A program made the position numbers. From Escherichia coli (GTDB lineage Bacteria > Pseudomonadota > Gammaproteobacteria > Enterobacterales > Enterobacteriaceae), in NCBI RefSeq assembly GCF_045037415.1, contig NZ_CP173438.1: DNA of 64,000 bases; one strand, written 5' to 3'. Below are positions 42,501 through 45,500 of the stretch, one piece after another; positions within the stretch are counted from its first letter, which is position 1, and each line of letters starts with the position of its first letter.

Positions 42501-45500
42501 ACCTGTCCGTTTTGTACTATGCTGCGTAGCCAAAACCGATAACATCCGCATTTACCTGGTATTCCATGATGAGTTCACGCAGCGACTGATAGAGGAAGGA
42601 AAGATGGTTAGTAAAAGCAAGGCGCATTGCCGCCGCATGCTGCAGGCATTGCAACAGACGAGAGCAGGTATTTTTGACCAGTTGGAAAACTGCCAGCATA
42701 CTTTGCCCGAGTATATCGCCATCTCATCGGAAACCAGTGCAACTCTTATTCATCGGGTTCCACCAGAGAAAAAGAAGAAATGAACAGTGAGGCGTTGTGT
42801 GGCATACAACGCCTTCTTCCATCATTCCTCGTCAGCCATGACAAAAATATAACCGCTGGCTCTTTCATTTTTCTCCTGCTTCCAGCCCCTCTCTACCTGG
42901 AAGCATCAAGGACGTGACGGCGTAAAGATAAATTGTCTCTTCACTCCCTGACAGGGGCGATTCTTTTCAAATCGCCATTTCGCCATGGCCTTCACCACTT
43001 CATCACGAAACAAATTATGAGGCTCTGAGCGGAGAAAAACGATCCGTGTCACAGTCCCATCAGCACCAATATCGAACTTAACCTCAACCAGCCCCTTGAT
43101 ATAATTTGCTGCAGCATATTCCGGATATCGTGGATACACCGTCACTAATTGCCGGGGCTCATCAGCTTTTTGCTGCGAGCATCCCACTGCCAGGACAGAT
43201 AACAGAAAAAGTAGTAAAAGGCGTCTTTTCATTTTTATTCCTACGGGTCTTATTCTGACAATATATCCTGTGTTCCAGACTGCCACATCACCACATCCTG
43301 TGCCATTATCTGACTCACATTACATACATCGCATCGGGATACAGTAGTAGCACTTTCTGTAATACAGCTTCCTGTTTCTTCCACCATCGCACCGGGATAA
43401 ACCCGCGAATCATTAACGCGGTAAAAACCCGGTGTGCATCGTTTTTAATTATTCCCGCACACTCACGCAGAAGGAATTCCCCGTCGGGCTACGGTCATGG
43501 TTAATGCGGGAATACGGCGACGATACAGCGCAGCTAAAAGGGTAATGGACGGATAGACCGGTTTATTTCATTCCACAGGATTCTGAGTGTCCCCAACTTC
43601 CTCCAATAGTCTGAGCCCACCTGTGTAGTTTTAATTTTCATCAATCCATTTAACTATCGTTTAATTGTTGTCACATAGGATTCTGCCGTTTTTAACAATG
43701 CAGGATAATAAGATGAAAAAAATGTTGTTTTCTGCCGCTCTGGCAATGCTTATTACAGGATGTGCTCAACAGACGTTTACTGTTGGAAACAAACCTACAG
43801 CAGTAACACCAAAGGAAACCATCACCCATCATTTCTTCGTTTCGGGAATTGGGCAGAAGAAAACTGTCGATGCAGCAAAAATTTGTGGTGGTGCAGAAAA
43901 TGTTGTTAAAACAGAAACCCAGCAAACATTCGTAAATGGATTGCTCGGTTTTATTACTTTAGGCATTTATACTCCGCTGGAAGCGCGTGTGTATTGCTCA
44001 CAATAATTGCATGAGTTGCCCATCGATATGGGCAGCTCTATCTGCACTGCTCATTAATATACTTCTGGGTTCCTTCCAGTTGTTTTTGCATAGTGATCAG
44101 CCTCTCTCTGAGGGTGAAATAATCCCGTTCAGCGGTGTCTGCCAGTCGGGGGGAGGCTGCATTATCCACGCCGGAGGCGGTGGTGGCTTCACGCACTGAC
44201 TGACAGACTGCTTTGATGTGCAACCGACGACGACCAGCGGCAACATCATCACGCAGAGCATCATTTTCAGCTTTCGCATCAGCTAACTCCTTCGTGTATT
44301 TTGCATCGAGCGCAGCAACATCACGCTGACGCATCTGTATGTCAGTAATTGCCGCGTTCGCCAGCGTCAGTTCTCTGGCATTTTTGTCGCGCTGGGCTTT
44401 GTAGGTAATCGCGTTATCGCGGTAATGATTAACCGCCCATGAAAGGCAGACGATGACGCAGATAACCAGAGCGGAGATAATCGCGGTTATTCTGCTCATA
44501 CCTCACTCTCTCTGAGCGTTCCGCCAGCTTCTTTGAATTTTGCAATCAGGCTGTCAGCCTTATGCTCGAACTGACCATAACCAGCGCCCGGCAGTGAAGC
44601 CCAGATATTGCTGCAACGGTCGATTGCCTGACGGATATCACCGCGATCAATCATCGGTAAAGCACCACGCTCTTTAATCTGCTGTAATGCCACTGCGTCC
44701 TGGCTTTTGGGGGAGAAGTCTTTCAAACCAAGCTGTTTACGGTAAGCATCCCACCAGCGTGAAAGAAGCTGATAACGTCCGGCGGCTGTTGATTTGAGTT
44801 TGGGGTGTAGCGTGACAAGTTTGCGAGGGTGATCGGAGTAATCAGTAAACAGTTCGCCGCCAACAATAACATCATAACCGTGGTTACGTGTCGGTTGTCG
44901 CCCGTTATCCGTTCCTTCTGACCACGCCAACATATCGAGGAAGGCTTTACGCTGAGGATTAAGATTTTGCATTTTTCACCCCTGTCAGTCGTTCCCAGAA
45001 GTACGTCAGTGCAACCGAACCCATCGCACCACTAATCCCCGCTGTCGCGAGAATCATGTAAATACTGAATCCACTTTCGATGCTGATCAGGCCACCAATA
45101 ACACCGGTGAATCCTGATACCACTATTTGAGCCAGAGCATTTATCCAACTCCACGTTGCTTTACTCTGCTTCACATCTATCAGGTAGCGGACCAGACCGC
45201 CCCAACCTGCGATGATCAGCAAAACGAGCCAGAACGCTCCGGCAAGGCTCTCTTTTTCGTGCATATGAATAGCCAATGTTTCGCCGCCGACAAAAGGCCG
45301 GGACGTTAAATGTCAGAAATCAGGCTCACGGGGTAATTTAACGACAAAGCACGGAGTTGATGCTCCCCGCAAGCCTGGAATAAAAAAGCCAGCATGTAGC
45401 TGGCAACAGAGGGTTAAGCAATATCAACTCAACAGCTGAAGACACCCTGGCTGGGGTAGGTTGGAAGGCTACTCACCGTTCAGAAACAGAAAAGCCCAAG

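Follow-up and report, generated by a model that had tools for sequence, protein, structure and literature searches.

What is encoded between positions 44038 and 44499 of a 64,000-nucleotide (nt) stretch of Escherichia coli DNA (NCBI RefSeq assembly GCF_045037415.1, contig NZ_CP173438.1; the whole stretch is called the window here): one phage gene, or two genes written one inside the other? The original prediction, made from the letters of the sequence, was that an embedded spanin pair, Rz/Rz1, lies here, with the Rz1 lipoprotein frame contained entirely within Rz in the +1 frame, in the gene-within-a-gene layout of phage lambda. The prediction holds. The two genes belong to the lambda family of two-component spanins and are the last genes of the late lysis operon of a lambdoid E. 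coli prophage, a reading to which we give a probability of about 0.97. The pair is real, was correctly interpreted and is already known, being a textbook case of overlapping genes.

The reading frames were examined by exact translation of the minus strand. Rz, the inner-membrane or i-spanin, starts with ATG at 44499 and runs to 44038 (153 codons and a stop), and Rz1, the o-spanin, a lipoprotein precursor of 60 amino acids (aa), starts with ATG at 44279 and runs to 44097 (60 codons and a stop). Neither open reading frame (ORF) has an internal stop, and the weak point that the original prediction had named for itself, stop codons in the Rz1 frame, is thereby removed. The starts are 220 nt apart (3 x 73 + 1), which places Rz1 in the +1 frame, and it occupies 0.48 to 0.87 of the length of Rz, wholly inside it. 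Lambda itself has the same protein lengths (153 and 60 aa), the same +1 embedding and the same 220-nt offset (starts at 45966 and 46186).

Membership was judged against the lambda-family two-component spanin with embedded architecture, following the definitions of Summer 2007 and Kongari 2018. Residues 29-153 of Rz cover all of Pfam PF03245 (Rz; profile positions 1-126 of 126, E 7.6e-54), and the protein matches 'Rz-like spanin' phrog_13 in PHROGs (E 9.8e-78). The inner product matches PF06085 (Rz1; profile positions 1-40 of 41, E 2.9e-20) and phrog_3198 (spanin, o-spanin; E 3.7e-30). Aligned over their full lengths with the lambda proteins, Rz is identical at 149 of 153 residues (97%), with four conservative changes (V4I, I15V, K45T and M54I), and Rz1 at 59 of 60 (98%), with the single change L2R in the signal peptide. 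Both group with the lambda family by the rule of PMC6139136, which asks for 40% identity or more to the family representative over 40% or more of the length. A scan of Rz, Rz1 and the neighbouring R, holin and Bor proteins against NCBIfam returned no matches, a gap in that library which is uninformative rather than contrary.

Could the inner 60-codon ORF still be a chance opening within Rz that is never translated? Such openings are easily had. When synonymous codons were shuffled among the Rz positions for a given residue, a +1 ORF beginning with ATG and at least 60 codons long was still present in 9877 of 20000 cases (49%), as it was in 2375 of 20000 uniform synonymous recodings (12%); +1 stops are rarely created because of the amino-acid composition of Rz. 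Since half of the shuffles reach this length, ORF length was dropped as an argument for the reality of Rz1. It also speaks for a chance frame that Rz1 is unannotated both in RefSeq and in the record of the closest phage, Escherichia phage PhiR47_2 (PV340567.1). As the openness of the +1 frame is unsurprising, the case rests on lambda homology and conservation, and here the content of the frame, with its PF06085 and phrog_3198 matches and its 59 residues shared with lambda Rz1, is far beyond chance. The lambda Rz1 product has been shown experimentally to be an outer-membrane lipoprotein (PMC5295617), the counterpart of the frame is annotated in E. coli K-12 as rzoD, and a strong Shine-Dalgarno sequence and a perfect lipobox accompany the frame. 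An untranslated chance frame is scarcely credible.

Conservation was measured in IMG/VR, a scan of which gave 581 confirmed relatives, the best 80 being kept for all locus counts given here. Full-length Rz, the open Rz1 frame and the lipobox are retained in all 80. These loci hold 33 protein variants of Rz against only 8 of Rz1, and the Rz1 sequence of the window is the commonest (64 of 80). Among the 40 distinct DNA variants, 24% of sites vary in the 5' part that encodes Rz only, 5.5% in the dual-coding part and 6.8% in the 59-nt Rz-only tail at the 3' end. Of the 540 single substitutions possible in the overlap, only 7 leave both protein sequences unchanged, and its low variability fits a dual-coding constraint, taken as no more than supporting evidence for the pair.

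Some observations weigh against the spanin reading or blunt its support. The length of the +1-frame ORF, taken alone, is not statistically informative. A recombination breakpoint, instead of dual coding, could account for part of the low variability in the overlap, the Rz-only 3' end being little varied as well (6.8%), and the compared sequences are related to one another. The prophage, furthermore, has an ISEc23 insertion and, in RefSeq, partial tail-fibre genes, and expression from it is predicted only. Nothing was found that contradicts the identification of the spanin pair.

The signals expected of the two proteins are in place. The lipoprotein signal of Rz1, for which the original prediction had proposed a check, was examined with a PROSITE-style pattern rule, which the protein satisfies. 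The n-region, M-R-K-L-K, is positively charged (R2, K3, K5), giving K/R within the first seven residues; a hydrophobic core follows, the six residues preceding the lipobox are uncharged, and the lipobox itself reads V-V-G-C, with Cys20 as its cysteine and Thr at position +2. The mature peptide has 40 aa, 10 of them proline, with PPPPP at residues 32-36. The Rz1 ribosome-binding site lies inside the Rz coding sequence (44280-44295, minus strand), where AAGGAG stands 7 nt upstream of the start codon (...ACGAAGGAGTTAGCTG followed by ATG). In Rz, the hydropathy windows that cover residues 1-26 have averages of 1.9-2.6, and no other such stretch occurs in the protein; a transmembrane anchor is predicted at about residues 4-24, with the periplasmic domain after it, a topology that would be that of lambda Rz.

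The name of the larger protein suggests another function. Matching records call it 'endopeptidase Rz' or 'prophage endopeptidase RzpD', from which Rz might be taken for a peptidoglycan endopeptidase rather than a subunit of a membrane-fusion complex. The name is a historical carry-over. Pfam finds the Rz family alone on the protein and no peptidase domain, and lambda Rz is an inner-membrane coiled-coil protein that acts with Rz1 in membrane fusion (PMC5295617, PMC6139136). A peptidase role is accordingly very improbable, and the membrane-fusion role of a spanin is preferred.

How well the pair would perform this role can be gauged from what is known of lambda. The saturation genetics of Cahill et al. 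located the sensitive part of Rz in the distal CC1 (residues 57-88) and the extreme C-terminus, found that the anchor (residues 5-24) is replaceable by an artificial one, and placed the key part of Rz1 at residues 32-54; C99 and C152 of Rz and C29 of Rz1 form homotypic intermolecular disulfides (PMC5295617). In the window the cysteines are at exactly the lambda positions (Cys99 and Cys152 in Rz, Cys29 in Rz1), and the lipobox and proline-rich region are those of lambda. CC1 residues 57-88 and the extreme C-terminus of Rz are unchanged, as are residues 32-54 of Rz1, including P32-P36, I39, W46, L50 and I54. Of the Rz substitutions, V4I and I15V fall in or next to the replaceable anchor and K45T and M54I in proximal CC1, outside the sensitive stretch, and L2R adds a positive charge to the n-region of the Rz1 signal. 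With every lambda-sensitive segment identical and the substitutions in tolerated regions, we infer that Rz and Rz1 of the window are functional.

The mechanism proposed for them follows published work on lambda (PMC5295617, PMC6139136), to which the present work adds the frames, signals, family membership and conservation; expression, localization and fusion activity would follow the lambda pattern, given identities of 97-98%. Rz would insert into the inner membrane by its N-terminal anchor and extend two coiled-coil helices into the periplasm, and Rz1, translated in the +1 frame from its own ribosome-binding site inside Rz, would be anchored in the outer membrane. The two would bind via their C-terminal parts to form a disulfide-linked complex across the periplasm. 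Once the holin had opened the inner membrane and R had degraded the peptidoglycan, the complexes would be freed to collapse, and their conformational change would fuse inner and outer membranes and complete lysis. In lambda, both spanins are required for disruption of the outer membrane, and if either is missing lysis is blocked and the cells become spherical (PMC5295617).

Whether this cassette is ever used depends on the state of the prophage. E. coli strain 4/1-1 (NZ_CP023844) has a chromosome collinear with the window, the identity exceeding 99.9%. Positions 1 to about 14900 hold host genes (ycgN, minCDE, bluF/bluR and others), after which a lambdoid prophage, about 47 kb long and inserted at icd, runs from an icd fragment at 14904-15071 to the end of the window, which falls inside the integrase gene. 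The genes might be correctly identified and yet be the inert remnant of a defective prophage, a cassette never used, like rzpD/rzoD of DLP12. The same type of Rz/Rz1 does survive in cryptic DLP12, an IS66-family insertion occupies 49152-51683, the annotation of the near-identical genome gives the tail-fibre genes as incomplete, and the neighbouring R is split by the insertion sequence (IS) ISEc52 in some genomes. In the window, however, the genes from Q through the holin and R to Rz and Rz1 are intact, their starts are coupled, and the IS lies between accessory genes, outside the core phage genes. In the near-identical genome the annotation shows all the genes for head, tail, replication and recombination as intact, and PhiR47_2, deposited as a complete phage genome with E. 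coli C as its stated host, matches the prophage over 11.5 kb at 99.1% identity. An inert remnant is therefore unlikely, if to be taken more seriously than the alternatives above, and a usable spanin cassette is the better reading. All 15 E. coli genomes among the matches listed have the lysis cassette at 100% identity, and at least 80% of a 1.8-kb cassette query is present in 742 of 5426 genomes.

Further features of the prophage were noted along the way. The insertion at 49152-51683, which strain 4/1-1 lacks, is a 2.5-kb IS66-family ISEc23 (tnpA, tnpB, transposase) flanked by an 8-bp duplication; it cuts off the final codons of an alpha/beta-hydrolase ORF (48124-49155) and adjoins a large inverse-autotransporter gene (intimin/invasin-like; 51744-55652, minus strand, 1302 aa), cargo inside the prophage, which has one 357-bp tandem repeat (119 aa) fewer than its counterpart in strain 4/1-1. 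In the near-identical RefSeq genome the side tail-fibre region is annotated as two incomplete pseudogene pieces (21107-22132 and 22765-23128), one with an N-terminal domain and the other with a head-spike fibre domain, which suggests deletion or rearrangement. At the end of the prophage, between the tail-fibre genes and the duplicated 3' icd fragment at 14904-15071, an attachment-site scar, lies the sitABCD iron/manganese transporter operon (16985-20434, plus strand) as prophage-borne cargo. Several E. coli genomes hold an otherwise identical cassette in which an IS3-family ISEc52 in R disrupts the cassette.

What surrounds the spanin genes is a lysis cassette in which Q, the holin, R and Rz/Rz1 follow one another directly on a single strand, with stop codons that overlap start codons. 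R (44496-44972, minus strand) is a lambda-type endolysin of 158 aa with a lytic transglycosylase fold. Pfam gave no family for it at E <= 0.01, and its identity was settled by a PDB sequence search (1AM7, lambda lysozyme, E 5.7e-100) and by PHROGs (phrog_90, endolysin, E 2.9e-63). Its TGA stop overlaps the Rz start in the sequence ATGA, and its own start overlaps the end of the holin gene by 14 nt. The cassette is closed by bor (43713-44006, plus strand; PF06291 E 1.1e-30), a lipoprotein gene convergent with Rz and named iss at RefSeq loci of identical sequence. Lambda likewise has R upstream and a convergent bor downstream, whereas the holin and Q of the window come from other families than those of lambda.

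The holin (44959-45276, minus strand) has 105 aa if it starts at TTG 45276 or 101 aa from ATG 45264, the start used by RefSeq. The original prediction that the holin paired with Rz/Rz1 is not lambda S is borne out. A BLASTP comparison with lambda S (S105/S107) gave E = 9 and no meaningful alignment, and by this and by its Pfam match the protein falls outside the lambda S family. It matches PF16083, the LydA holin family, over the full profile (positions 2-78 of 78, E 8.2e-22) and phrog_785 (E 5.5e-40), shows three hydrophobic segments by hydropathy and is encoded immediately upstream of the endolysin, all as expected of the LydA/gp13 type. Its closest named relatives, at 73% identity, are gene 13 products of the Salmonella phages ST64T, PS3 and ST160. 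By family assignment, then, this is a holin of the LydA/ST64T-gp13 type, with a predicted role in forming holes, and not lambda S.

The change of family coincides with a sharp limit to lambda homology. The DNA is 92.5% identical to lambda over 43659-44955 (R-Rz-bor), homology beginning a few bases past the holin stop codon (44959-44961); in lambda it begins at the first base after S. At the junction (44955-44972) the difference from lambda R is confined to the six N-terminal residues, MQNLNP in the window against MVEINN. The alignment thus points to a recombination junction that forms a clean mosaic boundary between the holin and endolysin genes.

Is the pairing unusual? The idea that it is was rejected, as lambda S precedes only one of the 80 related Rz/Rz1 loci, there with an endolysin of the lambda R type. 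A 71-aa S21-type holin (pinholin) is upstream in 46 of the 80, and the endolysin in 48 is a 165-aa protein unrelated to lambda R with a hydrophobic N-terminus. The LydA-type holin of the window is found at 18 loci and another putative holin of 108 aa at 11, both with endolysins of the lambda R type.

The cassette can be set beside other known systems. The rzpD/rzoD genes of the cryptic K-12 prophage DLP12 are of the same family, with the same embedded layout and borD after them, and 445 of 462 nt are identical; RzoD even has the same Arg2 variant in its signal peptide. They differ in the GTG start of RzpD and its nine residue differences from Rz of the window, and in P34R within the penta-proline stretch of RzoD. 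The order in DLP12 is essD-rrrD-rzpD/rzoD-borD, with an S21-type holin (essD) and rrrD in place of the LydA-type holin and lambda R-type endolysin. PhiR47_2 is far closer, with 99.9% identity across holin-R-Rz/Rz1-bor and with Q, nin region and terminase neighbours as in the window. Compared with the window, its R shows a 1-nt gap (L002, 6429-6904), the coding sequence being given as two 'lysozyme R' pieces, which reflects either a real frameshift or a sequencing error, and its Rz1 is unannotated. The Salmonella phages ST64T, PS3 and ST160 (genes 13-19-15) share the order holin-endolysin-spanin and a gp13 of the same length (73% identity), but encode an endolysin (gp19) and a spanin (gp15) other than those of lambda. 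In the classification of Kongari et al. (PMC6139136), ST64T belongs to the HK97 family of o-spanins, which is distinct from that of lambda.

Upstream of the holin lies Q (45586-46275, minus strand), a late-gene antiterminator of non-lambda type (PF06323 E 2.6e-93). The interval between the two (45388-45602, minus strand) has a promoter-like site at 45602-45574 followed by terminator-like hairpins at 45518-45492 (12-bp stem) and 45404-45388, and the scanned region has nine terminator-like sites against 2.1 expected. As pattern matches, these fit a late promoter with a Q-antiterminated terminator, and Q would probably drive the lysis operon, to judge from its type and these motifs.

At the other end of the cassette, the stops of the convergent genes Rz and bor are separated by 31 nt, which contain a perfect 7-bp inverted repeat, TGCCCAT-CGAT-ATGGGCA (44012-44036), possibly a bidirectional terminator or a stabilizing hairpin. 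Two plus-strand ORFs lie antisense to Rz (43987-44199, 70 aa; 44213-44329, 38 aa), with openness as their only support. Scans of the whole window with Rfam at gathering thresholds and with ARAGORN found no structured RNA and no tRNA. Between bor/iss and the terminase genes sits a small minus-strand ORF (42906-43286) that combines a lipoprotein-like signal, LAVGC, with a C-terminal TonB domain (PF03544 E 1.1e-12), an accessory 'moron' absent from lambda and called 'partial tonB-like protein of CP-933N' in other records.

The start of the holin raises a further point about timing. Gene 13 of ST64T begins with ATG and the residues M-A-K-R-M behind a strong ribosome-binding site (GGAGGTGG), resembling the dual-start (antiholin/holin) motif of lambda S107/S105. 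At the first possible start of the window holin (45250-45290) the corresponding reading is TTG-A-I-H-M; both positive charges are lost and the ribosome-binding site is weaker. It is conceivable, though doubtful, that a widespread E. coli prophage lineage has lost antiholin-based timing, and that its lambda-type endolysin and spanin would be triggered on a different schedule.

The discovery value of the locus is small, this being a textbook overlapping pair in a common E. coli prophage. Its practical value is in annotation. The record of strain 4/1-1 in RefSeq, where the locus is 100% identical, and that of PhiR47_2 list only Rz, as an 'endopeptidase'; Rz1 is thus missing from the RefSeq locus and from the closest phage record, and the name given to Rz is outdated. 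For the biology of the family, the locus illustrates lambdoid mosaicism, with one recombination junction at the boundary of holin and endolysin and the same spanin pair found behind at least four unrelated holins.

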